Source of the DNA: Eledone cirrhosa
Taxonomy: Eukaryota
Direction: 5' to 3'
Assembly: GCA_964016885.1 (NCBI GenBank)
Contig: OZ024742.1
Location: 113,956,001-114,020,000 of the forward strand
Length of the DNA stretch: 64,000 bases
The translations under genes were made by a program, and so were the position numbers. Positions 11,426 through 64,000 of the stretch are shown here, in pieces (within the stretch, counting starts at the first letter, position 1; every line of letters starts with the position of its first letter). Below the pieces are notes generated by a model that was given only the letters and a program-made list of their open reading frames with translations, did no database searches and had not been told where the DNA came from.

Positions 11426-11577
11426 GTATGGTGAACTAACTGTTGTGTAACCACTTCTACCTAACTCGTCTCATGGACTGAGTCCTCTACCACTACGGAT
11501 ATTACCCTCCAGTGTTCTCCCACTATCTATATATATATGTATATATATACACACACATATACATCAACTCAACACAC

Positions 11578-11615
<38 letters not shown>

Positions 11616-11622
<7 letters not shown>

Positions 11623-14600
11623 CAAATAACGAAACGAAATTAAATTTCGTTTCGTTTGTAACTCACTTTTGTATGACTGACGCTTAAACAATTAAGTTAA
11701 AGATGTACATCCATATATGTATACTGAAATACTAGTATGTATATGAATACACACACGTATACATATGTAGATGTACCAAGTTTTTTTCACTGGTCACTTT
11801 ACTGTGAGTGGCCAGCTATTCTGTATGTAAACCCACAGACAAACCGGTTTTTAGAGTCATACTGGTTTTTGAGGAAACACCTTTCCTCTATTCTCCAGAA
11901 AGCCAGACAAGGAATATTGAACTAGTTTCGTTGTTGTTACAACTCATCAGCAATATTTACCTATCTTCCGGCCTCTCTAGAGAATCGTAAAAGCACATAT
12001 CGTTATATGCTTTTTCTATGAAAATTAGTAGTGGGCAGACTAATTTGCATAGAGTGTGAGTAAGTACCGGTTCAACGGAGACGATAAAAACAAATAACGA
12101 AACGAAATTAAATTTCGTTTCGTTTGTAACTCACTTTTGTATGACTGACGCTTAAACAATTAAGTTAAAGATGTACATCCATATATGTATACTGAAATAC
12201 TAGTATGTATATGAATACACACACGTATACATATGTAGATGTACCAAGTTTTTTTCACTGGTCACTTTACTGTGAGTGGCCAGCTATTCTGTATGTAAAC
12301 ACACAGACAAACCGGTTTTTAGAGTCATACTGGTTTTTGAGGAAACACCTTTCCTCTATTCTCCAGAAAGCCAGACAAGGAATATTGAACTAGTTTCGTT
12401 GTTGTTACAACTCATCAGCAATATTTACCTATCTTCCAGCCTCTCTAGAGAATCGTAAAAGCACATATCGTTATATGCTTTTTCTATGAAAATTAGTAGT
12501 GGGCAGACTAATTTGCATAGAGTGTGAGTAAGTACCGGTTCAACGGAGACGATAAAAACAAATAACGAAACGAAATTAAATTTCGTTTCGTTTGTAACTC
12601 ACTTTTGTATGACTGACGCTTAAACAATTAAGTTAAAGATGTACATCCATATATGTATACTGAAATACTAGTATGTATATGAATACACACACGTATACAT
12701 ATGTAGATGTACCAAGTTTTTTTCACTGGTCACTTTACTGTGAGTGGCCAGCTATTCTGTATGTAAACACACAGACAAACCGGTTTTTAGAGTCATACTG
12801 GTTTTTGAGGAAACACCTTTCCTCTATTCTCCAGAAGCCAGACAAGGAATATTGAACTAGTTTCGTTGTTGTTACAACTCATCAGCAATATTTACCTATC
12901 TTCCGGCCTCTCTAGAGAATCGTAAAAGCACATATCGTTATATGCTTTTTCTATGAAAATTAGTAGTGGGCAGACTAATTTGCATAGAGTGTGAGTAAGT
13001 ACCGGTTCAACGGAGACGATAAAAACATATAACGAAACGAAATTAAATTTCGTTTCGTTTGTAACTCACTTTTGTATGACTGACGCTTAAACAATTAAGT
13101 TAAAGATGTACATCCATATATGTATACTGAAATACTAGTATGTATATGAATACACACACGTATACATATGTAGATGTACCAAGTTTTTTTCACTGGTCAC
13201 TTTACTGTGAGTGGCCAGCTATTCTGTATGTAAACACACAGACAAACCGGTTTTTAGAGTCATACTGGTTTTTGAGGAAACACCTTTCCTCTATTCTCCA
13301 GAAAGCCAGACAAGGAATATTGAACTAGTTTCGTTGTTGTTACAACTCATCAGCAATATTTACCTATCTTCCGGCCTCTCTAGAGAATCGTAAAAGCACA
13401 TATCGTTATATGCTTTTTCTATGAAAATTAGTAGTGGGCAGACTAATTTGCATAGAGTGTGAGTAAGTACCGGTTCAACGGAGACGATAAAAACAAATAA
13501 CGAAACGAAATTAAATTTCGTTTCGTTTGTAACTCACTTTTGTATGACTGACGCTTAAACAATTAAGTTAAAGATGTACATCCATATATGTATACTGAAA
13601 TACTAGTATGTATATGAATACACACACGTATACATATGTAGATGTACCAAGTTTTTTTCACTGGTCACTTTACTGTGAGTGGCCAGCTATTCTGTATGTA
13701 AACACACAGACAAACCGGTTTTTAGAGTCATACTGGTTTTTGAGGAAACACCTTTCCTCTATTCTCCAGAAAGCCAGACAAGGAATATTGAACTAGTTTC
13801 GTTGTTGTTACAACTCATCAGCAATATTTACCTATCTTCCGGCCTCTCTAGAGAATCGTAAAAGCACATATCGTTATATGCTTTTTCTATGAAAATTAGT
13901 AGTGGGCAGACTAATTTGCATAGAGTGTGAGTAAGTACCGGTTCAACGGAGACGATAAAAACAAATAACGAAACGAAATTAAATTTCGTTTCGTTTGTAA
14001 CTCACTTTTGTATGACTGACGCTTAAACAATTAAGTTAAAGATGTACATCCATATATGTATACTGAAATACTAGTATGTATATGAATACACACACGTATA
14101 CATATGTAGATGTACCAAGTTTTTTTCACTGGTCACTTTACTGTGAGTGGCCAGCTATTCTGTATGTAAACACACAGACAAACCGGTTTTTAGAGTCATA
14201 CTGGTTTTTGAGGAAACACCTTTCCTCTATTCTCCAGAAAGCCAGACAAGGAATATTGAACTAGTTTCGTTGTTGTTACAACTCATCAGCAATATTTACC
14301 TATCTTCCGGCCTCTCTAGAGAATCGTAAAAGCACATATCGTTATATGCTTTTTCTATGAAAATTAGTAGTGGGCAGACTAATTTGCATAGAGTGTGAGT
14401 AAGTACCGGTTCAACGGAGACGATAAAAACAAATAACGAAACGAAATTAAATTTCGTTTCGTTTCTAACTCACTTTTGTATGACTGACGCTTAAACAATT
14501 AAGTTAAAGATGTACATCCATATATGTATACTGAAATACTAGTATGTATATGAATACACACACGTATACATATGTAGATGTACCAAGTTTTTTTCACTGG

Positions 14601-17600
14601 TCACTTTACTGTGAGTGGCCAGCTATTCTGTATGTAAACACACAGACAAACCGGTTTTTAGAGTCATACTGGTTTTTGAGGAAACACCTTTCCTCTATTC
14701 TCCAGAAGCCAGACAAGGAATATTGAACTAGTTTCGTTGTTGTTACAACTCATCAGCAATATTTACCTATCTTCCGGCCTCTCTAGAGAATCGTAAAAGC
14801 ACATATCGTTATATGCTTTTTCTATGAAAATTAGTAGTGGGCAGACTAATTTGCATAGAGTGTGAGTAAGTACCGGTTCAACGGAGACGATAAAAACAAA
14901 TAACGAAACGAAATTAAATTTCGTTTCGTTTTGTAACTCACTTTTGTATGACTGACGCTTAAACAATTAAGTTAAAGATGTACATCCATATATGTATACT
15001 GAAATACTAGTATGTATATGAATACACACACGTATACATATGTAGATGTACCAAGTTTGTTTCACTGGTCACTTTACTGTGAGTGGCCAGCTATTCTGTA
15101 TGTAAACACACAGACAAACCGGTTTTTAGAGTCATACTGGTTTTTGAGGAAACACCTTTCCTCTATTCTCCAGAAAGCCAGACAAGGAATATTGAACTAG
15201 TTTCGTTGTTGTTACAACTCATCAGCAATATTTACCTATCTTCCGGCCTCTCTAGAGAATCGTAAAAGCACATATCGTTATATGCTTTTTCTATGAAAAT
15301 TAGTAGTGGGCAGACTAATTTGCATAGAGTGTGAGTAAGTACCGGTTCAACGGAGACGATAAAAACAAATAACGAAACGAAATTAAATTTCGTTTCGTTT
15401 GTAACTCACTTTTGTATGACTGACGCTTAAACAATTAAGTTAAAGATGTACATCCATATATGTATACTGAAATACTAGTATGTATATGAATACACACACG
15501 TATACATATGTAGATGTACCAAGTTTTTTTCACTGGTCACTTTACTGTGAGTGGCCAGCTATTCTGTATGTAAACACACAGACAAACCGGTTTTTAGAGT
15601 CATACTGGTTTTTGAGGAAACACCTTTCCTCTATTCTCCAGAAAGCCAGACAAGGAATATTGAACTAGTTTCGTTGTTGTTACAACTCATCAGCAATATT
15701 TACCTATCTTCCGGCCTCTCTAGAGAATCGTAAAAGCACATATCGTTATATGCTTTTTCTATGAAAATTAGTAGTGGGCAGACTAATTTGCATAGAGTGT
15801 GAGTAAGTACCGGTTCAACGGAGACGATAAAAACAAATAACGAAACGAAATTAAATTTCGTTTCGTTTGTAACTCACTTTTGTATGACTGACGCTTAAAC
15901 AATTAAGTTAAAGATGTACATCTATATATGTATACTGAAATACTAGTATGTATATGAATACACACACGTATACATATGTAGATGTACCAAGTTTTTTTCA
16001 CTGGTCACTTTACTGTGAGTGGCCAGCTATTCTGTATGTAAACACACAGACAAACCGGTTTTTAGAGTCATACTGGTTTTTGAGGAAACACCTTTCCTCT
16101 ATTCTCCAGAAAGCCAGACAAGGAATATTGAACTAGTTTCGTTGTTGTTACAACTCATCAGCAATATTTACCTATCTTCCGGCCTCTCTAGAGAATCGTA
16201 AAAGCACATATCGTTATATGCTTTTTCTATGAAAATTAGTAGTGGGCAGACTAATTTGCATAGAGTGTGAGTAAGTACCGGTTCAACGGAGACGATAAAA
16301 ACAAATAACGAAACGAAATTAAATTTCGTTTCGTTTGTAACTCACTTTTGTATGACTGACGCTTAAACAATTAAGTTAAAGATGTACATCCATATATGTA
16401 TACTGAAATACTAGTATGTATATGAATACACACACGTATACATATGTAGATGTACCAAGTTTGTTTCACTGGTCACTTTACTGTGAGTGGCCAGCTATTC
16501 TGTATGTAAACACACAGACAAACCGGTTTTTAGAGTCATACTGGTTTTTGAGGAAACACCTTTCCTCTATTCTCCAGAAAGCCAGACAAGGAATATTGAA
16601 CTAGTTTCGTTGTTGTTACAACTCATCAGCAATATTTACCTATCTTCCGGCCTCTCTAGAGAATCGTAAAAGCACATATCGTTATATGCTTTTTCTATGA
16701 AAATTAGTAGTGGGCAGACTAATTTGCATAGAGTGTGAGTAAGTACCGGTTCAACGGAGACGATAAAAACAAATAACGAAACGAAATTAAATTTCGTTTC
16801 GTTTCTAACTCACTTTTGTATGACTGACGCTTAAACAATTAAGTTAAAGATGTACATCCATATATGTATACTGAAATACTAGTATGTATATGAATACACA
16901 CACGTATACATATGTAGATGTACCAAGTTTTTTTCACTGGTCACTTTACTGTGAGTGGCCAGCTATTCTGTATGTAAACACACAGACAAACCGGTTTTTA
17001 GAGTCATACTGGTTTTTGAGGAAACACCTTTCCTCTATTCTCCAGAAAGCCAGACAAGGAATATTGAACTAGTTTCGTTGTTGTTACAACTCATCAGCAA
17101 TATTTACCTATCTTCCGGCCTCTCTAGAGAATCGTAAAAGCACATATCGTTATATGCTTTTTCTATGAAAATTAGTAGTGGGCAGACTAATTTGCATAGA
17201 GTGTGAGTAAGTACCGGTTCAACGGAGACGATAAAAACAAATAACGAAACGAAATTAAATTTCGTTTCGTTTCTAACTCACTTTTGTATGACTGACGCTT
17301 AAACAATTAAGTTAAAGATGTACATCCATATATGTATACTGAAATACTAGTATGTATATGAATACACACACGTATACATATGTAGATGTACCAAGTTTTT
17401 TTCACTGGTCACTTTACTGTGAGTGGCCAGCTATTCTGTATGTAAACACACAGACAAACCGGTTTTTAGAGTCATACTGGTTTTTGAGGAAACACCTTTC
17501 CTCTATTCTCCAGAAGCCAGACAAGGAATATTGAACTAGTTTCGTTGTTGTTACAACTCATCAGCAATATTTACCTATCTTCCGGCCTCTCTAGAGAATC

Positions 17601-20600
17601 GTAAAAGCACATATCGTTATATGCTTTTTCTATGAAAATTAGTAGTGGGCAGACTAATTTGCATAGAGTGTGAGTAAGTACCGGTTCAACGGAGACGATA
17701 AAAACAAATAACGAAACGAAATTAAATTTCGTTTCGTTTGTAACTCACTTTTGTATGACTGACGCTTAAACAATTAAGTTAAAGATGTACATCCATATAT
17801 GTATACTGAAATACTAGTATGTATATGAATACACACACGTATACATATGTAGATGTACCAAGTTTGTTTCACTGGTCACTTTACTGTGAGTGGCCAGCTA
17901 TTCTGTATGTAAACACACAGACAAACCGGTTTTTAGAGTCATACTGGTTTTTGAGGAAACACCTTTCCTCTATTCTCCAGAAAGCCAGACAAGGAATATT
18001 GAACTAGTTTCGTTGTTGTTACAACTCATCAGCAATATTTACCTATCTTCCGGCCTCTCTAGAGAATCGTAAAAGCACATATCGTTATATGCTTTTTCTA
18101 TGAAAATTAGTAGTGGGCAGACTAATTTGCATAGAGTGTGAGTAAGTACCGGTTCAACGGAGACGATAAAAACAAATAACGAAACGAAATTAAATTTCGT
18201 TTCGTTTGTAACTCACTTTTGTATGACTGACGCTTAAACAATTAAGTTAAAGATGTACATCCATATATGTATACTGAAATACTAGTATGTATATGAATAC
18301 ACACACGTATACATATGTAGATGTACCAAGTTTTTTTCACTGGTCACTTTACTGTGAGTGGCCAGCTATTCTGTATGTAAACACACAGACAAACCGGTTT
18401 TTAGAGTCATACTGGTTTTTGAGGAAACACCTTTCCTCTATTCTCCAGAAAGCCAGACAAGGAATATTGAACTAGTTTCGTTGTTGTTACAACTCATCAG
18501 CAATATTTACCTATCTTCCGGCCTCTCTAGAGAATCGTAAAAGCACATATCGTTATATGCTTTTTCTATGAAAATTAGTAGTGGGCAGACTAATTTGCAT
18601 AGAGTGTGAGTAAGTACCGGTTCAACGGAGACGATAAAAACAAATAACGAAACGAAATTAAATTTCGTTTCGTTTGTAACTCACTTTTGTATGACTGACG
18701 CTTAAACAATTAAGTTAAAGATGTACATCCATATATGTATACTGAAATACTAGTATGTATATGAATACACACACGTATACATATGTAGATGTACCAAGTT
18801 TGTTTCACTGGTCACTTTACTGTGAGTGGCCAGCTATTCTGTATGTAAACACACAGACAAACCGGTTTTTAGAGTCATACTGGTTTTTGAGGAAACACCT
18901 TTCCTCTATTCTCCAGAAAGCCAGACAAGGAATATTGAACTAGTTTCGTTGTTGTTACAACTCATCAGCAATATTTACCTATCTTCCGGCCTCTCTAGAG
19001 AATCGTAAAAGCACATATCGTTATATGCTTTTTCTATGAAAATTAGTAGTGGGCAGACTAATTTGCATAGAGTGTGAGTAAGTACCGGTTCAACGGAGAC
19101 GATAAAAACAAATAACGAAACGAAATTAAATTTCGTTTCGTTTGTAACTCACTTTTGTATGACTGACGCTTAAACAATTAAGTTAAAGATGTACATCCAT
19201 ATATGTATACTGAAATACTAGTATGTATATGAATACACACACGTATACATATGTAGATGTACCAAGTTTTTTTCACTGGTCACTTTACTGTGAGTGGCCA
19301 GCTATTCTGTATGTAAACACACAGACAAACCGGTTTTTAGAGTCATACTGGTTTTTGAGGAAACACCTTTCCTCTATTCTCCAGAAAGCCAGACAAGGAA
19401 TATTGAACTAGTTTCGTTGTTGTTACAACTCATCAGCAATATTTACCTATCTTCCGGCCTCTCTAGAGAATCGTAAAAGCACATATCGTTATATGCTTTT
19501 TCTATGAAAATTAGTAGTGGGCAGACTAATTTGCATAGAGTGTGAGTAAGTACCGGTTCAACGGAGACGATAAAAACAAATAACGAAACGAAATTAAATT
19601 TCGTTTCGTTTCTAACTCACTTTTGTATGACTGACGCTTAAACAATTAAGTTAAAGATGTACATCCATATATGTATACTGAAATACTAGTATGTATATGA
19701 ATACACACACGTATACATATGTAGATGTACCAAGTTTTTTTCACTGGTCACTTTACTGTGAGTGGCCAGCTATTCTGTATGTAAACACACAGACAAACCG
19801 GTTTTTAGAGTCATACTGGTTTTTGAGGAAACACCTTTCCTCTATTCTCCAGAAGCCAGACAAGGAATATTGAACTAGTTTCGTTGTTGTTACAACTCAT
19901 CAGCAATATTTACCTATCTTCCGGCCTCTCTAGAGAATCGTAAAAGCACATATCGTTATATGCTTTTTCTATGAAAATTAGTAGTGGGCAGACTAATTTG
20001 CATAGAGTGTGAGTAAGTACCGGTTCAACGGAGACGATAAAAACAAATAACGAAACGAAATTAAATTTCGTTTCGTTTGTAACTCACTTTTGTATGACTG
20101 ACGCTTAAACAATTAAGTTAAAGATGTACATCCATATATGTATACTGAAATACTAGTATGTATATGAATACACACACGTATACATATGTAGATGTACCAA
20201 GTTTGTTTCACTGGTCACTTTACTGTGAGTGGCCAGCTATTCTGTATGTAAACACACAGACAAACCGGTTTTTAGAGTCATACTGGTTTTTGAGGAAACA
20301 CCTTTCCTCTATTCTACAGAAAGCCAGACAAGGAATATTGAACTAGTTTCGTTGTTGTTACAACTCATCAGCAATATTTACCTATCTTCCGGCCTCTCTA
20401 GAGAATCGTAAAAGCACATATCGTTATATGCTTTTTCTATGAAAATTAGTAGTGGGCAGACTAATTTGCATAGAGTGTGAGTAAGTACCGGTTCAACGGA
20501 GACGATAAAAACAAATAACGAAACGAAATTAAATTTCGTTTCGTTTGTAACTCACTTTTGTATGACTGACGCTTAAACAATTAAGTTAAAGATGTACATC

Positions 20601-23600
20601 CATATATGTATACTGAAATACTAGTATGTATATGAATACACACACGTATACATATGTAGATGTACCAAGTTTTTTTCACTGGTCACTTTACTGTGAGTGG
20701 CCAGCTATTCTGTATGTAAACACACAGACAAACCGGTTTTTAGAGTCATACTGGTTTTTGAGGAAACACCTTTCCTCTATTCTCCAGAAAGCCAGACAAG
20801 GAATATTGAACTAGTTTCGTTGTTGTTACAACTCATCAGCAATATTTACCTATCTTCCGGCCTCTCTAGAGAATCGTAAAAGCACATATCGTTATATGCT
20901 TTTTCTATGAAAATTAGTAGTGGGCAGACTAATTTGCATAGAGTGTGAGTAAGTACCGGTTCAACGGAGACGATAAAAACAAATAACGAAACGAAATTAA
21001 ATTTCGTTTCGTTTGTAACTCACTTTTGTATGACTGACGCTTAAACAATTAAGTTAAAGATGTACATCCATATATGTATACTGAAATACTAGTATGTATA
21101 TGAATACACACACGTATACATATGTAGATGTACCAAGTTTTTTTCACTGGTCACTTTACTGTGAGTGGCCAGCTATTCTGTATGTAAACACACAGACAAA
21201 CCGGTTTTTAGAGTCATACTGGTTTTTGAGGAAACACCTTTCCTCTATTCTCCAGAAAGCCAGACAAGGAATATTGAACTAGTTTCGTTGTTGTTACAAC
21301 TCATCAGCAATATTTACCTATCTTCCGGCCTCTCTAGAGAATCGTAAAAGCACATATCGTTATATGCTTTTTCTATGAAAATTAGTAGTGGGCAGACTAA
21401 TTTGCATAGAGTGTGAGTAAGTACCGGTTCAACGGAGACGATAAAAACAAATAACGAAACGAAATTAAATTTCGTTTCGTTTGTAACTCACTTTTGTATG
21501 ACTGACGCTTAAACAATTAAGTTAAAGATGTACATCCATATATGTATACTGAAATACTAGTATGTATATGAATACACACACGTATACATATGTAGATGTA
21601 CCAAGTTTGTTTCACTGGTCACTTTACTGTGAGTGGCCAGCTATTCTGTATGTAAACACACAGACAAACCGGTTTTTAGAGTCATACTGGTTTTTGAGGA
21701 AACACCTTTCCTCTATTCTCCAGAAAGCCAGACAAGGAATATTGAACTAGTTTCGTTGTTGTTACAACTCATCAGCAATATTTACCTATCTTCCGGCCTC
21801 TCTAGAGAATCGTAAAAGCACATATCGTTATATGCTTTTTCTATGAAAATTAGTAGTGGGCAGACTAATTTGCATAGAGTGTGAGTAAGTACCGGTTCAA
21901 CGGAGACGATAAAAACAAATAACGAAACGAAATTAAATTTCGTTTCGTTTGTAACTCACTTTTGTATGACTGACGCTTAAACAATTAAGTTAAAGATGTA
22001 CATCCATATATGTATACTGAAATACTAGTATGTATATGAATACACACACGTATACATATGTAGATGTACCAAGTTTTTTTCACTGGTCACTTTACTGTGA
22101 GTAGCCAGCTATTCTGTATGTAAACACACAGACAAACCGGTTTTTAGAGTCATACTGGTTTTTGAGGAAACACCTTTCCTCTATTCTCCAGAAAGCCAGA
22201 CAAGGAATATTGAACTAGTTTCGTTGTTGTTACAACTCATCAGCAATATTTACCTATCTTCCGGCCTCTCTAGAGAATCGTAAAAGCACATATCGTTATA
22301 TGCTTTTTCTATGAAAATTAGTAGTGGGCAGACTAATTTGCATAGAGTGTGAGTAAGTACCGGTTCAACGGAGACGATAAAAACAAATAACGAAACGAAA
22401 TTAAATTTCGTTTCGTTTGTAACTCACTTTTGTATGACTGACGCTTAAACAATTAAGTTAAAGATGTACATCCATATATGTATACTGAAATACTAGTATG
22501 TATATGAATACACACACGTATACATATGTAGATGTACCAAGTTTTTTTCACTGGTCACTTTACTGTGAGTGGCCAGCTATTCTGTATGTAAACACACAGA
22601 CAAACCGGTTTTTAGAGTCATACTGGTTTTTGAGGAAACACCTTTCCTCTATTCTCCAGAAAGCCAGACAAGGAATATTGAACTAGTTTCGTTGTTGTTA
22701 CAACTCATCAGCAATATTTACCTATCTTCCGGCCTCTCTAGAGAATCGTAAAAGCACATATCGTTATATGCTTTTTCTATGAAAATTAGTAGTGGGCAGA
22801 CTAATTTGCATAGAGTGTGAGTAAGTACCGGTTCAACGGAGACGATAAAAACAAATAACGAAACGAAATTAAATTTCGTTTCGTTTGTAACTCACTTTTG
22901 TATGACTGACGCTTAAACAATTAAGTTAAAGATGTACATCCATATATGTATACTGAAATACTAGTATGTATATGAATACACACACGTATACATATGTAGA
23001 TGTACCAAGTTTGTTTCACTGGTCACTTTACTGTGAGTGGCCAGCTATTCTGTATGTAAACACACAGACAAACCGGTTTTTAGAGTCATACTGGTTTTTG
23101 AGGAAACACCTTTCCTCTATTCTCCAGAAAGCCAGACAAGGAATATTGAACTAGTTTCGTTGTTGTTACAACTCATCAGCAATATTTACCTATCTTCCGG
23201 CCTCTCTAGAGAATCGTAAAAGCACATATCGTTATATGCTTTTTCTATGAAAATTAGTAGTGGGCAGACTAATTTGCATAGAGTGTGAGTAAGTACCGGT
23301 TCAACGGAGACGATAAAAACAAATAACGAAACGAAATTAAATTTCGTTTCGTTTGTAACTCACTTTTGTATGACTGACGCTTAAACAATTAAGTTAAAGA
23401 TGTACATCCATATATGTATACTGAAATACTAGTATGTATATGAATACACACACGTATACATATGTAGATGTACCAAGTTTTTTTCACTGGTCACTTTACT
23501 GTGAGTAGCCAGCTATTCTGTATGTAAACACACAGACAAACCGGTTTTTAGAGTCATACTGGTTTTTGAGGAAACACCTTTCCTCTATTCTCCAGAAAGC

Positions 23601-24147
23601 CAGACAAGGAATATTGAACTAGTTTCGTTGTTGTTACAACTCATCAGCAATATTTACCTATCTTCCGGCCTCTCTAGAGAATCGTAAAAGCACATATCGT
23701 TATATGCTTTTTCTATGAAAATTAGTAGTGGGCAGACTAATTTGCATAGAGTGTGAGTAAGTACCGGTTCAACGGAGACGATAAAAACAAATAACGAAAC
23801 GAAATTAAATTTCGTTTCGTTTGTAACTCACTTTTGTATGACTGACGCTTAAACAATTAAGTTAAAGATGTACATCCATATATGTATACTGAAATACTAG
23901 TATGTATATGAATACACACACGTATACATATGTAGATGTACCAAGTTTTTTTCACTGGTCACTTTACTGTGAGTGGCCAGCTATTCTGTATGTAAACACA
24001 CAGACAAACCGGTTTTTAGAGTCATACTGGTTTTTGAGGAAACACCTTTCCTCTATTCTCCAGAAAGCCAGACAAGGAATATTGAACTAGTTTCGTTGTT
24101 GTTACAACTCATCAGCAATATTTACCTATCTTCCGGCCTCTCTAGAG
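11616..24147 (-). repeat. 468-bp tandem array, left arm: 27 near-identical units, each with a hammerhead on the minus strand (candidate retrozyme)
   Basis: Period of 467-468 bp is visible in the sequence and in the repeating short ORFs. The arm starts at a (TA)n tract. Confidence 0.95.
11913..11957 (-). ncRNA. Type I hammerhead ribozyme, first of 27 left-arm copies (repeats every ~468 bp)
   Basis: Reverse complement reads aatattg-CTGATGA-gttgt aaca acaac-GAAAC-ta-GTT-caatatt: 7-bp stem I, 5-bp stem II, palindromic AACTAGTT stem III. Confidence 0.88.
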
Positions 24148-27100
24148 TGAGTTACAAACGAAAAGTGAGTTACAAACGAAACGAAATTTAATTTCGTTTC
24201 GTTATTTGTTTTTATCGTCTCCGTTGAACCGGTACTTACTCACACTCTATGCAAATTAGTCTGCCCACTACTAATTTTCATAGAAAAAGCATATAACGAT
24301 ATGTGCTTTTACGATTCTCTAGAGAGGCCGGAAGATAGGTAAATATTGCTGATGAGTTGTAACAACAACGAAACTAGTTCAATATTCCTTGTCTGGCTTT
24401 CTGGAGAATAGAGGAAAGGTGTTTCCTCAAAAACCAGTATGACTCTAAAAACCGGTTTGTCTGTGTGTTTACATACAGAATAGCTGGCCACTCACAGTAA
24501 AGTGACCAATGAAAAAAACTTGGTACATCTACATATGTATACGTGTGTGTATTCATATACATAATAGTATTTCAGTATACATATATGGATGTACATCTTT
24601 AACTTAATTGTTTAAGCGTCAGTCATACAAAAGTGAGTTACAAACGAAACGAAATTTAATTTCGTTTCGTTATTTGTTTTTATCGTCTCCGTTGAACCGG
24701 TACTTACTCACACTCTATGCACATTAGTCTGCCCACTACTAATTTTCATAGAAAAAGCATATAACGATATGTGCTTTTACGATTCTCTAGAGAGGCCGGA
24801 AGATAGGTAAATATTGCTGATGAGTTGTAACAACAACGAAACTAGTTCAATATTCCTTGTCTGGCTTTCTGGAGAATAGAGGAAAGGTGTTTCCTCAAAA
24901 ACCAGTATGACTCTAAAAACCGGTTTGTCTGTGTGTTTACATACAGAATAGCTGGCCACTCACAGTAAAGTGACCAGTGAAAAAAACTTGGTACATCTAC
25001 ATATGTATACGTGTGTGTATTCATATACATACTAGTATTTCAGTATACATATATGGATGTACATCTTTAACTTAATTGTTTAAGCGTCAGTCATACAAAA
25101 GTGAGTTACAAACGAAACGAAATTTAATTTCGTTTCGTTATTTGTTTTTATCGTCTCCGTTGAACCGGTACTTACTCACACTCTATGCAAATTAGTCTGC
25201 CCACTACTAATTTTCATAGAAAAAGCATATAACGATATGTGCTTTTACGATTCTCTAGAGAGGCCGGAAGATAGGTAAATATTGCTGATGAGTTGTAACA
25301 ACAACGAAACTAGTTCAATATTCCTTGTCTGGCTTTCTGGAGAATAGAGGAAAGGTGTTTCCTCAAAAACCAGTATGACTCTAAAAACCGGTTTGTCTGT
25401 GTGTTTACATACAGAATAGCTGGCCACTCACAGTAAAGTGACCAGTGAAAAAAACTTGGTACATCTACATATGTATACGTGTGTGTATTCATATACATAA
25501 TAGTATTTCAGTATACATATATGGATGTACATCTTTAACTTAATTGTTTAAGCGTCAGTCATACAAAAGTGAGTTACAAACGAAACGAAATTTAATTTCG
25601 TTTCGTTATTTGTTTTTATCGTCTCCGTTGAACCGGTACTTACTCACACTCTATGCAAATTAGTCTGCCCACTACTAATTTTCATAGAAAAAGCATATAA
25701 CGATATGTGCTTTTACGATTCTCTAGAGAGGCCGGAAGATAGGTAAATATTGCTGATGAGTTGTAACAACAACGAAACTAGTTCAATATTCCTTGTCTGG
25801 CTTTCTGGAGAATAGAGGAAAGGTGTTTCCTCAAAAACCAGTATGACTCTAAAAACCGGTTTGTCTGTGTGTTTACATACAGAATAGCTGGCCACTCACA
25901 GTAAAGTGACCAGTGAAAAAAACTTGGTACATCTACATATGTATACGTGTGTGTATTCATATACATACTAGTATTTCAGTATACATATATGGATGTACAT
26001 CTTTAACTTAATTGTTTAAGCGTCAGTCATACAAAAGTGAGTTACAAACGAAACGAAATTTAATTTCGTTTCGTTATTTGTTTTTATCGTCTCCGTTGAA
26101 CCGGTACTTACTCACACTCTATGCAAATTAGTCTGCCCACTACTAATTTTCATAGAAAAAGCATATAACGATATGTGCTTTTACGATTCTCTAGAGAGGC
26201 CGGAAGATAGGTAAATATTGCTGATGAGTTGTAACAACAACGAAACTAGTTCAATATTCCTTGTCTGGCTTTCTGGAGAATAGAGGAAAGGTGTTTCCTC
26301 AAAAACCAGTATGACTCTAAAAACCCGTTTGTCTGTGTGTTTACATACAGAATAGCTGGCCACTCACAGTAAAGTGACCAGTGAAAAAAACTTGGTACAT
26401 CTACATATGTATACGTGTGTGTATTCATATACATACTAGTATTTCAGTATACATATATGGATGTACATCTTTAACTTAATTGTTTAAGCGTCAGTCATAC
26501 AAAAGTGAGTTACAAACGAAACGAAATTTAATTTCGTTTCGTTATTTGTTTTTATCGTCTCCGTTGAACCGGTACTTACTCACACTCTATGCAAATTAGT
26601 CTGCCCACTACTAATTTTCATAGAAAAAGCATATAACGATATGTGCTTTTACGATTCTCTAGAGAGGCCGGAAGATAGGTAAATATTGCTGATGAGTTGT
26701 AACAACAACGAAACTAGTTCAATATTCCTTGTCTGGCTTTCTGGAGAATAGAGGAAAGGTGTTTCCTCAAAAACCAGTATGACTCTAAAAACCGGTTTGT
26801 CTGTGTGTTTACATACAGAATAGCTGGCCACTCACAGTAAAGTGACCAGTGAAAAAAACTTGGTACATCTACATATGTATACGTGTGAGTATTCATATAC
26901 ATACTAGTATTTCAGTATACATATATGGATGTACATCTTTAACTTAATTGTTTAAGCGTCAGTCATACAAAAGTGAGTTACAAACGAAACGAAATTTAAT
27001 TTCGTTTCGTTATTTGTTTTTATCGTCTCCGTTGAACCGGTACTTACTCACACTCTATGCAAATTAGTCTGCCCACTACTAATTTTCATAGAAAAAGCAT

Positions 27101-28353
27101 ATAACGATATGTGCTTTTACGATTCTCTAGAGAGGCCGGAAGATAGGTAAATATTGCTGATGAGTTGTAACAACAACGAAACTAGTTCAATATTCCTTGT
27201 CTGGCTTTCTGGAGAATAGAGGAAAGGTGTTTCCTCAAAAACCAGTATGACTCTAAAAACCGGTTTGTCTGTGTGTTTACATACAGAATAGCTGGCCACT
27301 CACAGTAAAGTGACCAGTGAAAAAAACTTGGTACATCTACATATGTATACGTGTGTGTATTCATATACATACTAGTATTTCAGTATACATATATGGATGT
27401 ACATCTTTAACTTAATTGTTTAAGCGTCAGTCATACAAAAGTGAGTTACAAACGAAACGAAATTTAATTTCGTTTCGTTATTTGTTTTTATCGTCTCCGT
27501 TGAACCGGTACTTACTCACACTCTATGCAAATTAGTCTGCCCACTACTAATTTTCATAGAAAAAGCATATAACGATATGTGCTTTTACGATTCTCTAGAG
27601 AGGCCGGAAGATAGGTAAATATTGCTGATGAGTTGTAACAACAACGAAACTAGTTCAATATTCCTTGTCTGGCTTTCTGGAGAATAGAGGAAAGGTGTTT
27701 CCTCAAAAACCAGTATGACTCTAAAAACCGGTTTGTCTGTGTGTTTACATACAGAATAGCTGGCCACTCACAGTAAAGTGACCAGTGAAAAAAACTTGGT
27801 ACATCTACATATGTATACGTGTGTGTATTCATATACATACTAGTATTTCAGTATACATATATGGATGTACATCTTTAACTTAATTGTTTAAGCGTCAGTC
27901 ATACAAAAGTGAGTTACAAACGAAACGAAATTTAATTTCGTTTCGTTATTTGTTTTTATCGTCTCCGTTGAACCGGTACTTACTCACACTCTATGCAAAT
28001 TAGTCTGCCCACTACTAATTTTCATAGAAAAAGCATATAACGATATGTGCTTTTACGATTCTCTAGAGAGGCCGGAAGATAGGTAAATATTGCTGATGAG
28101 TTGTAACAACAACGAAACTAGTTCAATATTCCTTGTCTGGCTTTCTGGAGAATAGAGGAAAGGTGTTTCCTCAAAAACCAGTATGACTCTAAAAACCGGT
28201 TTGTCTGTGTGTTTACATACAGAATAGCTGGCCACTCACAGTAAAGTGACCAGTGAAAAAAACTTGGTACATCTACATATGTATACGTGTGTGTATTCAT
28301 ATACATACTAGTATTTCAGTATACATATATGGATGTACATCTTTAACTTAATT

Positions 28354-28358
<5 letters not shown>
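24146..28358 (+). repeat. 468-bp tandem array, right arm: 9 units in inverted orientation
   Basis: Reverse complement of the left-arm unit. It ends at ...aattgttta|(TA)n. Confidence 0.95.
24342..24386 (+). ncRNA. Type I hammerhead ribozyme, first of 9 right-arm copies
   Basis: aatattg-CTGATGA-gttgtaacaacaac-GAAAC-ta-GTT-caatatt. Confidence 0.88.
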
Positions 28359-33206: not shown

Positions 33207-33745
33207 AGTTATTCCGGGTTGAAGTGGAGGTAACCACAGTAAAACAGTAAGTAAGGTACTCAATATATGGCAGGGTATAAAGGTTTTAGTATAGAAGAGC
33301 TTCTACAGGACTAGATTTATTTCCATTGTGAGAAATCATCAGGAAGCTGACTGTCCAAGTAAATATGGTTGTATTTATATATTTTCTAAGTGATAGGAGA
33401 GGGTGATGATTCGGATGGGTGGAGGTCATTGGTTGAAATAAATGTACCTGCGTGTGTGTATGTATGTGTATATGTGTGTGTGTATGTATGTACACGTATG
33501 TATATGTGTATGTATATGTATTTATATATATATGCGAGAAGGGAAGTGGATGTCAAGAACTCTGGTAACGCAGAAGAGAGGCGATATTTGAAGGGTGAGG
33601 GTGATTGGGCGTTGGGCCTGAGCAAGGGGGCAGTGTGCTGAACCCCGCAGACAAAACTGCAAAAGTGACGCAGTATGTGCGCACTATATGAGCGATGTGA
33701 CTCCTTGAAATGGGAAGGGGTTGATTCCATGGCGGCATCACCGGG
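33207..33745 (-). mobile_element. PLE 3' fragment with pLTR containing a hammerhead (33298-33348)
   Basis: Reverse complement reads agcttc-CTGATGA...GAAAT...GTA-gaagct. The pLTR end matches 56553-56682. Confidence 0.55.
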
Positions 33746-33779
33746 GTCAACTAGCTTTGCGATGCAAAGCTAGTTGCGT

Positions 33780-35755: not shown

Positions 35756-35979
35756 ATATATATATATATATGTATATATATATTGGTTAACAAGTATTCG
35801 TTATAGGTAATCCAGTTAGAGGCTGTGAGTGCTCTGCGCCGTTTTAAGGTGCGGCTTATTTTCACTCAACATGATGCTTCCATAGTTATCCAGCGAGTTC
35901 GCGGTAATTTTTATGCAGGTTATACTTGAAGTAATAATAGTTAAAGAATGAAGATTAGTATGCTTGTCTGTACAATAAG

Positions 35980-38948: not shown

Positions 38949-38992
38949 TTTTGTACGGTCAACCATATCAATCTTCATTCTTTAACTATATA

Positions 38993-40550
<1,558 letters not shown>

Positions 40551-42453: not shown

Positions 42454-42486
<33 letters not shown>

Positions 42487-42489
<3 letters not shown>

Positions 42490-43520: not shown

Positions 43521-43525
<5 letters not shown>
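42487..43525. repeat. ~585-bp tandem duplication (about 1.8 copies) between (TA)n tracts
   Basis: aacataaattatcgagattcgcatttcggcccacg occurs at ~42487 and ~43071. Confidence 0.9.
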
Positions 43526-43596
<71 letters not shown>

Positions 43597-43728
43597 TATA
43601 TTTATATATATATATTGTTATATTTTGGGAGGGTCATGTTGCCAAAGTATAACGATCCCAAAGTATAACAATATCGGTTTCAACACACGATTTCAGATAA
43701 AGAATCTTGCTAAACAAATTCAGAAACG

Positions 43729-44544: not shown

Positions 44545-44930
<386 letters not shown>

Positions 44931-45099
44931 TATTAAGGATACTATTTATGGTTATCCATATACAAAAACCTTTTGTAGTTATATATATTTTTATAAACTC
45001 TAAATAGTGATAGGTAGTAATATATTACTACCTTATTACCAGTATGTTAAATAGCTCAATGTAATAACATCAGTTGTTTTACAGAGCAGTTATATGTAA

Positions 45100-47130
45100 G
45101 TCATAAGAATCAAAGTTCTGTTCAAATCATTTATATGCTTACAATTGTTTCCTCCAAACCGAGGTTTGGATTCTACGGAGCGATTTGTTAATGAATGATC
45201 ACATATATGACCTCCTTTTCAACCCAAGAGACATACAGATACATATGCAAATATTGTTGCTTGGTGGGTCCACATCCATTATAACATTTAGCGTGGCAGT
45301 ATATATTTAAAGATTACATTCATATCAAAAGAGGATAAAATTAAAAATTAAAGTTAAAATACAACATGAAATTAATGCGATAGGATAGTCAGAAGCAGTT
45401 AGTTTGTGCACTAGTTACACGTGTGGCAAGCACGTGTGTCTTATTTATATAATACTATAGTGCGGCAGGGTGTTACATGTAATACAAGCACTTAAGCGGG
45501 TAATCAAAAGTATTAAGGGGGTTGAACTGGTAATGTATCTTTTATATGAATGTTATCGAAGCTTGTGTGTAGAGAAATATTATAAATATTAAAAATATTA
45601 CAACTGTGTAGCAAAGCGATGATATGGTTTTCGTGTACAGCACCATTTTCACAGTCCGGATAGCGTAATATCTAGATTACATGCCCCTCACATAATCCAC
45701 GACGATTCAATATTGGACGTTTGATGATTCTGTTAGAGTATCATAGTTTGTTGGTCTTTAGTCCAATATAGCAGGTTGTTTAAGTTGCGAGAATCAACAT
45801 CGTATTATTTTCCGTAAGTGTGTGTGTGACTAAGGGGAGTTAATGAGTGAGGGGAGGTAACTCACTGATTTCTATAACTAAATATACATTAAATGGTGTC
45901 TCAAAAGAGTCCTTATTGTATATGGTTATAAACAGTTTATAAAAATTTAAAGTGTCATATCTATAATGTAACCTATCAAAAAGTATTAAAGGTGTTCATA
46001 TTAGGGTGATTATCCTCCATTATAGAGTGCCACAATTGAATATTTCACACGAAGAGCCAGATCTCCAAATCAATGATCATTGTAATTGTAGTCTACTCGT
46101 AGAACCTGGCAGGGTTATTATAGAATCACTTCTACATATAATAATTCCTGGTAAGCTCTGGGTCAGTGCATGTCAGATTGTATGTGAAAGTTAACTATCA
46201 CTAGGGTAGACCAGAGGTCAAACCTCACTTACCATGTCACTAATCTGACCATCAATTCATGCATATATGAACAACTCATACGCTACTTGCATTTCATTCA
46301 CTACACTCAGCACATAGGTTATATAGCTCATCAATGTTACTAAATTAATTAGTCTTCCACTTATCCAACGATGGTACTCCATCCACAGAACACCAACAGT
46401 ACAATCAATTCGATGTTTAAATCTTACATTTATTATATAGTGGTGTAATGTAGTTCAAGCAATTGAAGGCAGTCACACCGAAAGTAGATGTACAAAGGGG
46501 TATTCCTACTGTAAAGGGTTCTAGAGGGATGTCACTATTTGTGTTATATTGGATCAATGAGTGTGGGGATGTGGTATAAGGTGTGCCCTTGGGGTTTGAT
46601 GCTAGAGGTGGTGCCTGGTTCAAGTCTGACATTGCTATATATTGGGTTTAAAGTTTTGGAAGGAATGTCGGAAGCCGTGCTCGCAAGACGCGAACACTCG
46701 GATTTTTTGTTAAGTAGGTTATGGTTAGAGAAGATAATAGTATGGGCCTCTAGTAGACAGAGGTTACAAAATGTATTAGGTGGTTTGTACGAAGTCGCGC
46801 TACCTATCGCTTCCCATTTAAGTGTGTAAGATTTAATTTTAACTATCCTATCGCATTAATTTCATGTTGTATTTTAACTTTAATTTTTAATTTTATCCTC
46901 TTTTGATATGAATGTAATCTTTAAATAAATACTGCCAGGCTAAATGTTATAATGGATGTCGACCCACCAAGCAACAGTATTTGCATATGTATCTGTATGT
47001 CACTTGGGTTGAAAAGGTGGTCATATATGTGATCATTCATTAATAAATTGCTCCGTAGAATCCAAACCTCGGTTTGGAGGAAACAATTGTAAGCATATAA
47101 ATGATTTGAACAGAACTTTGATTCATATAA

Positions 47131-47132
<2 letters not shown>
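45100..47132. mobile_element. Element bounded by ~290-bp inverted repeats carrying a hammerhead-like fold; interior unassigned
   Basis: 45100-45390 is inverted at 46842-47132, with (TA)n tracts outside. Confidence 0.65.
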
Positions 47133-47174
<42 letters not shown>

Positions 47175-47410
47175 AAAGAATAGAGGTGTAACACACGAGT
47201 TATGATATATAGGTAAACGGAAAGGAAAATGCTGACAAATTGTTCCCAGTGAAAAATACTTTACTTAGGAATAAGTAAACATTAGTAATAGTATTGGTTA
47301 GTATTCAGTTTTGGTTTTTAATTTTACCGGTTGCGCATTTCTAATGCTTTTCAAAAATAATGTTGAGATAGAGCGCCCGTGATGTTTGATCTAGAGCAAA
47401 TATCACGGGA

Positions 47411-48285
47411 GCAAATAAGAAAAAGTTTTAAAATACATTTTAAAAAGTTCAATATGCCTGGTGTAATTACCTTTATCGTGCGATTTCGAGTATCAAAAAT
47501 AAATGGATAATCCATGCGAAAATCCATTGAAAAGGAAGACTCCCGTCAGAGGGCTTTTTCGCTCGGAGAATATAAAATTCCCGTGTTCAAATCACGACCT
47601 GGCGCCATTCAAAATTGCACCCGAGATGAGAGAGTATGATGAAGAAGCAATTCTGTCTAGTGCCGGGTGTAAAGATAGAAGGCAGGGTAAGAAAGGTCAA
47701 TCTACTGCCAATAGAAATAGCAGCAGTTAAAACGATCAAAATGTTATCTCGACCAGGGGAGATAATAATAATAAAGTAAGTATCCCTACATGCAAAATAC
47801 ATATAGGGACACAAGTATTATCCAACCGTATGCCAATGTGGTTCTATGTCAGGTTAATAAATTAACGAGCCAGAACATATATAATCAAGGTTTAGCAAAT
47901 AAGAAAAAGTATTAAAATAAATTTTAAAAAGTTCACTGTACCTGCTATAATTACCCTTACCTACGGTTTCATGTTTCAAAATAAATGGATAATCCATGCG
48001 GAAATCCATTGAAAAGGAATGTTCTCGTCAGAGCGTTCTTTTCGCTCGGAAAATATAAAATACCAGAGTTCAAATCACGACATGACGACATTCAAAATTG
48101 CTCCCGAGATGAGAGTGTATGATGGAGAAGCAATTCTGTCTAGTGCTGTGTGTAAAGATAGAAGGCAAAGGCGGAAGGTAAATCTACTGCCACTAGAAAT
48201 AGCAGCAGTTAAAACGACCAAAATGGTATCTCGACCAGGGGAGATAATAATAATAAAGTATGAATCCCTACATGCAAAATACAAG

Positions 48286-48375: not shown

Positions 48376-48459
<84 letters not shown>

Positions 48460-48464
<5 letters not shown>

Positions 48465-49175
48465 TGTATACGTACATACATATATGTATACAGACGTACA
48501 GTAGTATGTATACATATATATACATGCATCCACACATATATATATGTACGTATGGATTCACCGAACATTTATTATGATGCTCGGTGTGTTTGTAAACAAA
48601 CATCTCGAATTAAGCCGTACAGTGTCTAGCAACCATCGTTGCTCATTTGTTCAACACTGACAAAGGAATGTTGTACTAGTTTCAAGCTTATTAGCTATCG
48701 TCAGCAACAGTATACCTTCCTGCCAGATGATTAAACGTCTGAAATTATGCATATTAACGGCTGAACAGCCTAATTTGCATATCCAGTGAGTTAATCGGCC
48801 GAGCGCACCGTAAACGACAAACGGAAAACATGAAACGAAATTTAATTTCTCACACTTAGTACGGTTGTTACTTAAAATAACATTTCCATAACGATAAACG
48901 GAAAAACATGCATACTATTGTACGTATGTATACATATATGTATGTACGGCTGCTCAGCCGTTAATATGTATAAGGAAAGTATATACTTTCAGACGTACAA
49001 TCATCTGGCAGGAAGGTATACGTTGCTGACGATAGCAAATAAGCTTAAAACTAGTAGAGCGTTCCTTTGTAGGTGTTAAAAAAAAGAGCAACTATGGTTG
49101 CTAGACACTGTACGGCTTAATTAGGGATGTTTTGTTTACAAACACACCGAGCATTATAATAAATGTTCGGTGAAA
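48460..49175. repeat. Diverged relative of the 468-bp unit in head-to-head arrangement; HHR at 48669-48709 (-) and 49021-49061 (+)
   Basis: Shares aaggaat.ttg.actagtttc...tc.tcagcaa, ctaatttgcata and gaaacgaaatt.aatttc blocks with the 468-bp unit. HHR reads tgttg-CTGACGA-tagct aata agctt-GAAAC-ta-GTA-caaca. Confidence 0.82.
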
Positions 49176-50445
49176 GATTCAGGATCCCGGCGGCTGTGTC
49201 CGGCTATTTTGACAGCTAGATCCACGTGTGTGTGAGTGTGTGTGTGTGTGTTTGTGTATGTGTGTCTATGTGTGCGTGTGTGAGTGAGTGTACATTGATG
49301 ATGTATTTTTATAGTGCAGATATATAACACACGGATCGGTGAAACTGCAGTCCGGACTTTCAAGAAAAAATGGGTATATTTTTGTTTAGTATTTCCTCAT
49401 TTAACAGCTCTGATTATGGAATTATATTAATTATATTCATTGTTTTAGCTCTATCGCTCAGCGTGCAAAATGTGTTAAGGCGGACACCTCATATACACAT
49501 ATAGATATTAATATATCTGTGTATTTCATTATTATATTTACCAAACTCCTCTATGGTCGAGTAATCGAAGAGCGTAATAACAGTTATTTCTAGCAAAAAT
49601 GTTATTCGCTCATTGTCCACATTACTACACTTCCGTGACCATTCTATCCTGTGTTACTATATCACTCCGCCTATCGATAATTCCTCACTTGCGTCGAAAG
49701 AAACATTCCTTTTTTTAGAGATTGTATCACGTGTTAATTATTCCCTCCGCCTCTCGTGACTGTGTCATTTGCTACCAACGTTTCAAGTAATTCATATTTC
49801 TGAGGGGGTCCCACGGCGATGATGCATATTATAGAGCAGGACATTGTTGCGCATGGATCGGCGAAATTCAGTCGAGACTTTGAAGAAAAAATACGTATAT
49901 ATGTGTCTATTACTTCCACACAGTTTTTAATTTGATATATATATATTAATATATATATTGTTATACTTGGGTAGGGTCATATTGTTGTAATAATATTGCT
50001 GGAAATAATAACAGAACACACTCACTGTTTGGTTGGTTTTCGCCTCTGTATTATTTATTTCTCCCCAGTTAATTCATTTGGTCCACAATGTTTACCATTG
50101 ACTGACCAACGGTCAAAAATACACATATAATATAGATATAAACACATATATATAGTCTAACAAAGTATATATATATATATATATATATGTGCGTATGTGT
50201 CTGTGTGTGTGTATATATGTTGGTGACTGTGGCCTATATACTCTGGTCACAGACACACACACATATACACAGACATTCAGAAACCCTTCCTAATTAGCAG
50301 TAAATATTCGCTACATACATCGATTCATGACAAATATTATATGGTACATATAACTTAATGTTCAGTCACGAAATTCGGACCAGTTACAATAATGCTATAT
50401 TCGATTGTTCCATGTCACTTGTTATATTCATATTCAAGAACTTTG

Positions 50446-50580
<135 letters not shown>

Positions 50581-50699
50581 CAATATATATATATTTAAAT
50601 TCCAAACGAAAAAGCTTATAATTAAAGAATGCAGATGAACATGCACAGATGAGATGCCTTTCCCCCCTCATCGACCACCCTTCTACCTGGCCCCTCAGA

Positions 50700-51180
50700 A
50701 GTCGATCCTTCGTTTTTTAGTTCGCCTATAACCTAACCTCTCCATTTCACCCATTACCCTCCCTTATATTCAAGTGCATTTGTAATCTTCGGAATCTCCT
50801 TTTCCGCAACGCCCTTACGCCCGCAAGACATCTCCTTGACCACACCCCTGTTCTCGACTCCGCTACCATACATGCAGCTTTATCCCCACACCACCATGAT
50901 ATTCCGGGTTAGGAACTCCTTCAGCTTCACCTCCAGCAGCCATGTCTATGGACTCCATTGTACTCTTTTCTGAGGTATATACCTTGGTCATAATGCTCGT
51001 CGTCTAACTGACAGATTTGTTGTACACCTTATCCACACGTGGGTCGGCAACCCGTCTCCGATCTCCTGACATATTCAATCCGCCCGCCACTCGACTCACC
51101 GCATCAGTGACTTCGGGCTCGCACATTGTACCCGACATCCTGACGCACGTTGGCGGAGAGAAAAGCAACTTAATTTCTCC
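50700..51180 (+). mobile_element. Highly decayed PLE GIY-YIG fragment
   Basis: NLRNLLFR and FRVRNSFSFTSSSHVYGLHCTLF*GIYLGHNARRLTDRFVVHL resemble the VY...YIG...R.L..RF..H motif. Confidence 0.6.
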
Positions 51181-56114: not shown

Positions 56115-56552
<438 letters not shown>

Positions 56553-56682
56553 GTTATTCCGGGTTGAATCGGAGGTAACCACAGTAAGTAAGGAACTCAA
56601 TACAGTGCAGAGTATAAATGTTTTAATATAGATGAGATTCTACAGGACTAGAAATGTTTCATTCTTTAGACATCATCAGGAT
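56553..56682 (-). mobile_element. PLE pLTR end with hammerhead core
   Basis: Homologous to 33207-33348. Reverse complement reads CTGATGA-tgtctaaagaat-GAAACA...TGTA. Confidence 0.6.
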
Positions 56683-56683
56683 T

Positions 56684-57064
56684 ACGTATATACTTACCTT
56701 ATGCATATTAACTCACCGTTAATATGCATAAGGTAAGTATATACGTTCAACAATCTGGCAAGAAGGTATACGTTGCTGACGATATCTAATAAGCTTGAAA
56801 CTAGTACAGCGTTCCTTTGTCAGTGTTGAACAAATGAGCAACGATGGTTGCTAGACACTACGGTTTAATACGGGATGTTTGTTTACAAACACACCGAGCA
56901 TTATAATAAATGTTCGGTGAATCCATACGTACATATATGTATGTGTGCATGTATACATACTACTGTACGTCTGTATACATATATGTATGTACGTGTACAT
57001 ACTTTTATTTAAGTAACAGCCGTACTAAGTGTGGGAAATGAAATTTCGTTTCATTTCTTCCGTT

Positions 57065-57066
<2 letters not shown>
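56684..57066 (+). repeat. Further copy of the 48460-type hammerhead repeat; HHR at 56771-56811
   Basis: cgttg-CTGACGA-tatctaataagctt-GAAAC-ta-GTA-cagcg. The copy ends in (TA)n. Confidence 0.82.
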
Positions 57067-57100
<34 letters not shown>

Positions 57101-63189: not shown

Positions 63190-64000
63190 ATACATCAGCT
63201 CAAAGGTTCATTATAGACAATATCAGGGTTGTTCCTCTGTTAGTGGTATCAATTGCAAATTTTACACCATGAGGATCGCACACTCGATATGCAGCAACAT
63301 ACAGCTGCCCATGGCTGAATGCTGGATGATTCAAGTAGACGCCGACTCGCTTTAAAGTCTGTCCCTGTGCCTTGTTGACAGTCATGGAGAAGACCAAATT
63401 GACGGGAAACTGTCTCCTTTGCCAAATGGATGGCAGCAGATCTTCACTAGGTCTCATCATGATCCTCGGAATGAGAACCGAGGCCTCTGAGCCTGGGAAT
63501 TTAGCCTCTAAAACGCTTCCGTTAATCAACCTCTCAACAATCAATATGGTACCATTGCAAAGACCCATTTTATGATTGATATTTCTAAGCAATATAATCG
63601 GCATACGCTCTTTCAACCTCAACATATGTGGGAGGAATCAGGGTATTTGAAGTGAATTCAGATACTCAGTCGGAACATCCATATTGTTCTGCTAATTAGG
63701 CTCCATTGCATCCGCACTGACGGTCAACCATTCCTCTCCAGGAAATATTCCGGCTACTTGTGAATATATTTCATCGACCGTTGCATTCGTATGAGTTAGA
63801 ATAACGCGTTCCGATATCCAGGACATATTCTGCCAAAAACATTCAAATTAGGGAACCCCCAGTCAATCAATGCTTGGCGGTCCAGTCGCATGACCAAATG
63901 GTATGGGATACTTACAGTCTGATTATCACCAACGTGTGGAAATTCATCGTCTCCCATCTGCATCAAACATTGGCTAAGTGTCAGCCGCTTCGCTTAGCCC
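63190..64000 (-). mobile_element. Helitron RepHel PIF1-like helicase C-terminal fragment (pseudogenised, runs off the window)
   Basis: LRLK....ILLRNI...GLCNGT...V, IPRI, RRQFPV...FSMTVNKAQGQTL..VGVYL...FSHGQLYVA..RV. Confidence 0.9.

Follow-up and report, generated by a model that had tools for sequence, protein, structure and literature searches.

Two hammerhead-ribozyme repeats are joined at one (TA)n site in Eledone cirrhosa. Did they arrive in a single integration event that used two RNA templates, or one after the other, and does their junction tie a retrozyme to the machinery of Penelope-like elements (PLEs)? An earlier note on this DNA had read the site as a PLE pLTR linked to a retrozyme copy through a 29-bp fold-back in one event. 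We therefore analysed the locus within its window, the 64-kb stretch of contig OZ024742.1 that surrounds it, which is AT-rich and dense in (TA)n, with 33 merged tracts counted.

Two unrelated hammerhead families are joined 5' end to 5' end

The insertion is flanked by TA tracts on both sides, as the earlier note had described, the left tract ending at 56551 and the right one starting at 57065. Between them lie three pieces (Table 1): a repeat of family B on the left, pointing left; a hairpin; and a repeat of family A on the right, pointing right. B and A meet at their 5' ends without any TA spacer, and the 3' ends of both lie on TA. Alignment of B against A never reached z 2.5, and we therefore treat them as two unrelated hammerhead families. 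Head-to-head geometry is typical of PLE insertions, and that of the B–A junction agrees with it. The junction is real, well formed and built from known PLE-type parts, and the locus as a whole is a fairly ordinary Penelope-type insertion scar.

Table 1. Features of the locus and of related repeats in the window
Feature	Position	Strand	Remarks
Tandem array, 468-bp period	11616..28358		36 hammerhead cores (27 minus, 9 plus); relative of A
Longer family B copy	33207..33450	-	3' end identical in position, at (TA)7; no coding sequence in its own orientation
Head-to-head insertion, same A subfamily	48453..49174		left arm just over 1 monomer; short templated pieces at junction
Left (TA)n-rich tract	56134..56551		CA interruptions; insertion target
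Left TACGT	56550..56554	+	candidate B target-site duplication; carries C where other B copy has A
Family B 3' end	56553..56681	-	129 bp; 5'-truncated 2 nt upstream of hammerhead core
Incomplete type I hammerhead of B	56636..56679	-	core CTGATGA 56679-56673, GAAA 56660-56657, GUA triplet 56643-56641
Right TACGT	56683..56687	+	overlaps outer palindrome end
Perfect hairpin	56684..56746		29-bp arms (56684-56712, 56718-56746), 5-nt loop TCACC
Inverted family-A sequence	56684..56706	-	23 nt; must derive from fold-back or second-end copying
ATTAACTCAC	56707..56716	+	identical to native A sequence from farther upstream in another copy (48786-48795, minus strand)
Family A sub-monomer copy	56707..57065	+	~360 of ~408 nt; non-coding; 35% GC
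Type I hammerhead of A	56770..56812	+	core 56776-56782, GAAA 56797-56800, palindromic ACTAGT stem III, GUA triplet 56804-56806
Right (TA)n tract	57065..57088		24 bp; fused to family A 3' end

The left part has the geometry of a PLE end

The left part had been called homologous to positions 33207-33348. The homology held and its extent did not, the match ending at 33344: BLAST aligned 56553-56681 with 33208-33344 at 81% identity (E 1.7e-37), flanking TA being counted among its 152 columns, and 109 of the 129 ungapped columns are identical, a divergence of 15.5%. In both copies the B 3' end falls on the same base of the family, on a (TA)n tract (2/2). At 33193-33206 only 14 bp of TA separate B from the end of unrelated sequence. 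The end motif shared by the two copies was found at only those two places in the window and never in 100 shuffles, and a profile search of the window for B returned only these two copies (next match, E 0.36). The hammerhead of the longer copy, at 33342, has a 6-bp stem I, a 3-bp stem III and a weak stem II (one such hit against 0.03 expected), and it lies ~140 nt from the fixed 3' end, within the roughly 100-200 nt expected of a PLE pLTR. In the accessible Hydra rows of Files S1 and S2 of PMC8557442 the hammerhead stands about 100-150 nt from the end. At the locus itself, the 5' strand of stem I of the hammerhead at 56679 was lost at the junction. With a hammerhead at this distance from a fixed end on TA, B has PLE-end geometry; it could equally be a non-autonomous family.

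The further claim that the left part is the pLTR of a coding PLE was not supported, since it matched none of the coding-PLE ends compared in the window. When each B copy was set against the ends of four of the five mapped coding PLEs and against hammerhead repeats elsewhere, in 15 comparisons apiece, no convincing match emerged, the best coding-linked p, uncorrected among the 15 comparisons, being 0.036 for the copy at the locus and 0.128 for the copy at 33207. Apart from the match between the two B copies, the best B score was a 20-nt match to nearby unassigned sequence (p = 0.006, uncorrected), and unassigned repeats gave p 0.02-0.038 (uncorrected). The coding PLE that adjoins 33207 is oriented opposite to the B copy there, with a microsatellite between them. 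We considered and rejected B as the inverted pLTR of this element (33.76-35.75 kb): the hammerhead at its 3' end is another one, and this end could not be aligned with the 33207 copy (p = 0.128). We also rejected the idea that B and A together make up a single native element, as their upstream continuations elsewhere differ (33345-33450 and 48761-48818, respectively). The 16-mer end motif of B was not found in the accessible supplement text of PMC8557442, where line breaks could hide a match.

Family A is a non-coding hammerhead repeat with a tandem relative

The right-pointing hammerhead repeat was confirmed, with a core at 56776 on the plus strand, a 6-bp stem I and a weakened stem II; the folding z of the hammerhead region in this copy is -0.06. 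The copy is ~87% identical to both arms of the insertion at 48453-49174 and ~70% identical to parts of the 468-bp array (nhmmer E 2e-16). Rfam gave no match at gathering threshold over the window; with the Hammerhead_HH9 model, an array unit reached E 4.8e-8 and the 56776 copy only E 0.27. Among the properties that define retrozymes, family A is non-coding, low in GC and without an LTR: neither A nor the array holds an ORF of at least 120 aa, and tblastn with 150 PLE-related proteins gave no match there. Tandem units that each carry a type I hammerhead are present in the array, with its 36 cores; in the subfamily at the locus, tandem arrangement is only partial, at 48453-48876.

The array units are ~99.7% identical and both array ends lie on (TA)n. 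The array is inverted once, at 24147/24161, with a 13-nt duplication at the junction (24147-24173), and has a one-sided tail of 66 nt. It looks like a single young PLE-type insertion or a local amplification, and it is the best retrozyme candidate in the window. A conserved hairpin at 57030-57056, also found in each array unit, stands ~10 nt before the distal A 3' end and is a candidate initiation stem-loop; the array version has 14-bp perfect arms.

The hairpin belongs to the A copy and forms its 5' end

The perfect 29-bp hairpin with loop TCACC at 56684-56746 was borne out. It is the longest of the nine non-microsatellite perfect hairpins listed, the masked array interior being left out, and the next has 14-bp arms; its folding z is -13.9, and none of 200 shuffles was equally stable. 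The idea that this fold-back joins two templates was not supported, as both arms and the loop are family-A sequence throughout. The right arm is ordinary family-A sequence, within which 56707-56716 supplies a 6-bp inverted repeat together with the loop (chance about 1e-4 per 60-nt window). This 10-mer occurs at two places only in the window and, by the A alignment, lies ~26 nt further upstream in the A copy at 48.8 kb.

Its sequence marks the hairpin as the A copy's own 5' end and not as a linker. It probably arose by snap-back copying primed by the 6-bp inverted repeat in the A template: an A template or cDNA that lacks the 26 nt has this repeat around TCACC and so could prime snap-back of the remaining 23 nt. 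Alternatively, the hairpin may reflect a 1-nt deletion and 1-bp priming, in which case the loop is still A-derived. Such palindromes are a published hallmark of PLEs: the accessible text of PMC3846280 describes single PLE copies that begin with palindromes of 18 and 38 bp at the 5' end, and reads these as self-priming. A microRNA was rejected as an explanation of the hairpin, Rfam miRNA models matching far below their gathering scores.

Family A carries marks of PLE-type integration

That PLE machinery moves A is better argued from features that do not depend on the chimera, namely (TA)n targets, head-to-head inversions, the tail, recurrent 3' ends and a Hydra-type ribozyme core. All three A-family loci (the array, 48453-49174 and the present locus) are inverted, with a perfect junction palindrome at the present locus only. 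Four of the five A-family outer ends are TA-joined and fall into two pairs, which by-eye mapping places at the equivalents of about 57007-10 and 57064-65; this clustering has P = 0.0008 for uniform ends and P = 0.026 if only TTT sites are allowed, and the fifth outer end, at 49174, fits neither position. Two recurrent end positions are as predicted by the PLE initiation at two sites reported in the accessible text of PMC11167929. In six measured head-to-head pairs (of seven), one arm ends at most 4 nt from the TA tract and the other extends 66-167 nt further; the one-sided extra is 66 nt in the array and 68 nt in the coding PLE at 10.1-11.5 kb. The core form of the A subfamily, CTGACGAT...TGAA, agrees with 9 of the 12 Hydra rows of File S2 of PMC8557442 among the matches listed.

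Order of arrival at the (TA)n tract

We favour, with a probability of about 45%, a history in which one (TA)n tract received two PLE-type target-primed insertions in turn, A first and B later. In the first step, a family-A RNA would have been copied into cDNA from the TA nick on the right, beginning at one of the two recurrent 3' ends; the 5' end of the A cDNA would have folded back on the template-borne 6-bp inverted repeat and copied 23 nt of itself, and joining of the fold-back end to the left TA end would have given the order (TA)n, palindrome, A, (TA)n. In the second step, a family-B RNP would later have nicked at the TA/palindrome boundary and primed at the usual B 3' end through 2 nt of matching sequence (GT), copying ~128 nt and leaving a 5-bp duplication, TACGT. 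Both insertions would have had an RNA intermediate, for which the likeliest enzyme may be a (TA)n-targeting Hydra-clade PLE protein.

This order is favoured because the TACGT pair brackets B alone, and does so exactly, such that excising B with one TACGT leaves (TA)n directly on the palindrome; because the hairpin arms and loop are all family A; and because different families pile into the same TA tracts in the window. The repeat also accounts for the C at 56552, where the 33207 copy has A, and for one of the two T bases that do not belong to B (base-frequency product, 0.058). The identical start base in both B copies is expected if B initiated independently. A repeat of at least 5 nt arose in 3.2%, 3.8% and 3.2% of 200,000 simulated end-to-end joins under three nulls.

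The A-then-B order is weakened because TACGT is short, was noticed post hoc and reaches p ~0.03-0.04 only, and because rotifer PLE target-site duplications are 8-10 bp or absent in the accessible text of PMC3846280. B would also have had to land no more than a few bases from the border of a ~420-bp tract (present length), the scheme does not account for the T at 56682, and B, with two copies, can be neither dated nor polarised; moreover, a second RNP on the free top strand in the same reaction could yield TACGT too. Two related schemes were rejected: insertion of B inside a longer left A arm, there being no A remnant to the left of B (nhmmer over 56297-56568, E 0.9-7), and a target-site duplication of B plus the fold-back in the form of the 10-mer at 56546 and 56738, which would need a second A template.

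Somewhat unlikely, in our estimate, is a single integration with two RNAs, in which a (TA)n break was primed leftwards on B RNA and rightwards on A RNA and the A fold-back enabled joining; in a variant, B was captured out-and-back during resolution of the A 5' end. The missing TA spacer and the head-to-head arrangement with both 3' ends on TA fit this reading, as does the agreement between a perfect hairpin and the age of the A copy (four private substitutions in 165 columns, 2.4%; P = 0.24 for an unmutated hairpin). In the accessible texts, nicking and extension of both strands by a PLE protein is described in vitro, and a dimer is predicted for that protein (PMC11167929); L1 yields opposite-orientation insertions from two RNAs (PMC11702581; PMC13174262). 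The missing spacer is weak evidence for one event, however, because a spacer-less fusion also occurs at 49174/49175, where the end of an A copy abuts, tail-to-tail and with no TA in between, a reverse-oriented fragment (49175-49225) that matches the 35.6-kb coding PLE in its hammerhead region (0 of 3,000 shuffles).

TACGT, for its part, is not predicted by plain end-joining (3-4%), and its position around B points to entry into a site that already held the palindrome, contrary to the single event of the earlier note. A target-site duplication enclosing both parts would be invisible, the outer flanks being (TA)n; the visible 5-bp repeat encloses B alone. A scan of prokaryotic contigs returned 0 matches. 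The locus would also be a lone example, since all seven other head-to-head pairs detected by self-BLAST of the window are single-family, in a search to which mixed pairs are invisible. A two-RNA event, even if true, would tie A to the machinery of B, itself a putative PLE end. We consider it improbable that one PLE reaction took a retrozyme RNA on one break end and a second hammerhead RNA on the other, with the ends served independently and retrozyme RNAs competing for the PLE enzyme.

The opposite history, which strikes us as quite doubtful, has B arriving first and A entering later into a short TA run at the B 5' edge, trimming the spacer, or has the two standing apart until a later deletion took away the spacer along with most of an originally longer inverted A arm. 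It finds parallels in the spacer-less join of A to the coding-PLE fragment at 49174/49175 and in a near-palindrome with 190-bp arms at 6616-6994; the right TA tract is just 24 bp, and the B copies differ by 15.5% against 2.4% private changes in the A copy. However, TACGT must then be a chance repeat (3-4%), and the join between the expected B and A continuations has no clear microhomology. An assembly or library artefact is very improbable. Fold-back chimeras are a known sequencing artefact, but both outer ends here lie at family-typical positions on TA tracts and the loop is identical to native upstream A sequence.

Relation to known elements

EN+ Penelope-like elements resemble the locus in their head-to-head inverted arms, 5'-junction palindrome, one-sided tail, (TA)n targets and hammerhead near the 3' end (accessible texts of PMC3846280, PMC8557442 and PMC11167929). 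In contrast to those descriptions, the arms at the locus come from two different families, neither with an ORF there, and tails in the A family are 55-66 nt rather than 30-40 nt. With Hydra-clade PLEs, as far as PMC8557442 is accessible, the coding fragments of the window share the CxCX5C linker, the flanking CxxC/CxH and the (TA)n preference, and the core form CTGANGAT...TGAA, found in 9 of the 12 Hydra rows of File S2 among the matches listed, is also present in the A subfamily and in the B copy at the locus; neither A nor B, however, can be aligned to the ends of the coding copies in the window. L1 twin-priming chimeras likewise draw on two templates that face opposite ways, and filler or microhomology is seen where they meet (accessible texts of PMC13174262 and PMC11702581). 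There, the target-site duplication surrounds the whole chimera and co-arrival is established by comparative genomics, whereas the only repeat at the B–A locus encloses B alone. A search by title and abstract opening, which covered subscription literature thinly, found no published description of a two-family head-to-head PLE insertion.

Metazoan non-LTR retrozymes are similar to family A in having non-coding, low-GC tandem units, every one of which carries a single type I hammerhead whose stem III is palindromic (accessible texts of PMC7229834 and bioRxiv 10.64898/2026.07.22.740005); the A copy at the locus differs in being shorter than one monomer. A link between retrozymes and PLEs has already been proposed in print. 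The accessible text of PMC7229834 names PLEs as a strong candidate for mobilisation of animal retrozymes, and both sources propose retrozymes as non-autonomous PLE derivatives; in Xenopus, matches at the pLTRs link 24 of 57 retrozyme families to 22 known TEs, of which 21 are PLEs (10.64898/2026.07.22.740005). In the accessible parts of both (PMC7229834; 10.64898/2026.07.22.740005), the case rests on co-occurrence and pLTR homology, not on junction anatomy. Junction anatomy is a separate test of which enzyme moves animal retrozymes, and family A shows PLE-specific marks (inversion, tail, 5' palindrome and TA targets) that can be counted genome-wide. Should one PLE reaction have used both RNAs and B turn out to end a coding Hydra-type PLE, the genome would here preserve direct evidence of a retrozyme mobilised in trans. 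How PLEs make inverted ends is a question on which a proven two-RNA insertion would also bear, but this single locus does not amount to such proof.

Coding PLEs and other repeats in the window

PLE coding regions were mapped with 150 relatives at five places (6113-6516, 10387-11217, 33727-34401, 36772-38610 and 46697-46852), and the HMMER protein search found 1543 relatives. Word-index protein searches with two endonuclease fragments returned 0 of 488 and 0 of 10 candidates. Read in translation, the coding fragments have the Hydra-clade motifs, a CxCX5C linker with CxxC and CxH around conserved E and N; among the 150 relatives CxCX5C is present in 125 and CxxCxxEK in 70, and RWK and DKT are found in P0005. 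Pfam assigned no family to any of five long relatives, nor to four PLE fragments.

Decayed Hydra-like PLE copies lie at 10133-11525, 33760-35755, 35784-38989, 44930-47134 and 6113-6516, and three such copies have inverted terminal arms that are 87-97% identical. A perfect 13-bp hairpin at 33748-33776, near the 5' truncation of a Hydra-like ORF, is possibly a second junction palindrome; protein matches to this ORF run from 33826, with one weak alignment at 33727, and the sequence to the left of the hairpin (33536-33747) weakly resembles the 3' end of the same element (p = 0.056). The near-perfect palindrome at 6616-6994 (177/189 identical) lies between TA tracts and has CTGAAGA on both strands at its centre. 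Short hairpins by TA tracts or repeat ends at 43613-43673, 45012-45033 and 47373-47412 are perhaps similar junction scars.

Further repeat families lie by TA tracts at 7864-10112, 42478-43521, 47410-48283, 39091-40428 and 32520-32880, several with hammerhead-like cores; the first three have tandem periods of ~574, 584 and 484 bp, respectively. By eye, we noted hAT-like transposase pieces at 29192-30713, a fragment like the RT end of a non-LTR element at 210-602 and a possible second PLE type at 50600-51000. A Pif1 helicase fragment, which we take to be Helitron-like, is present at 63203-63637 (Pfam E 4.7e-12).
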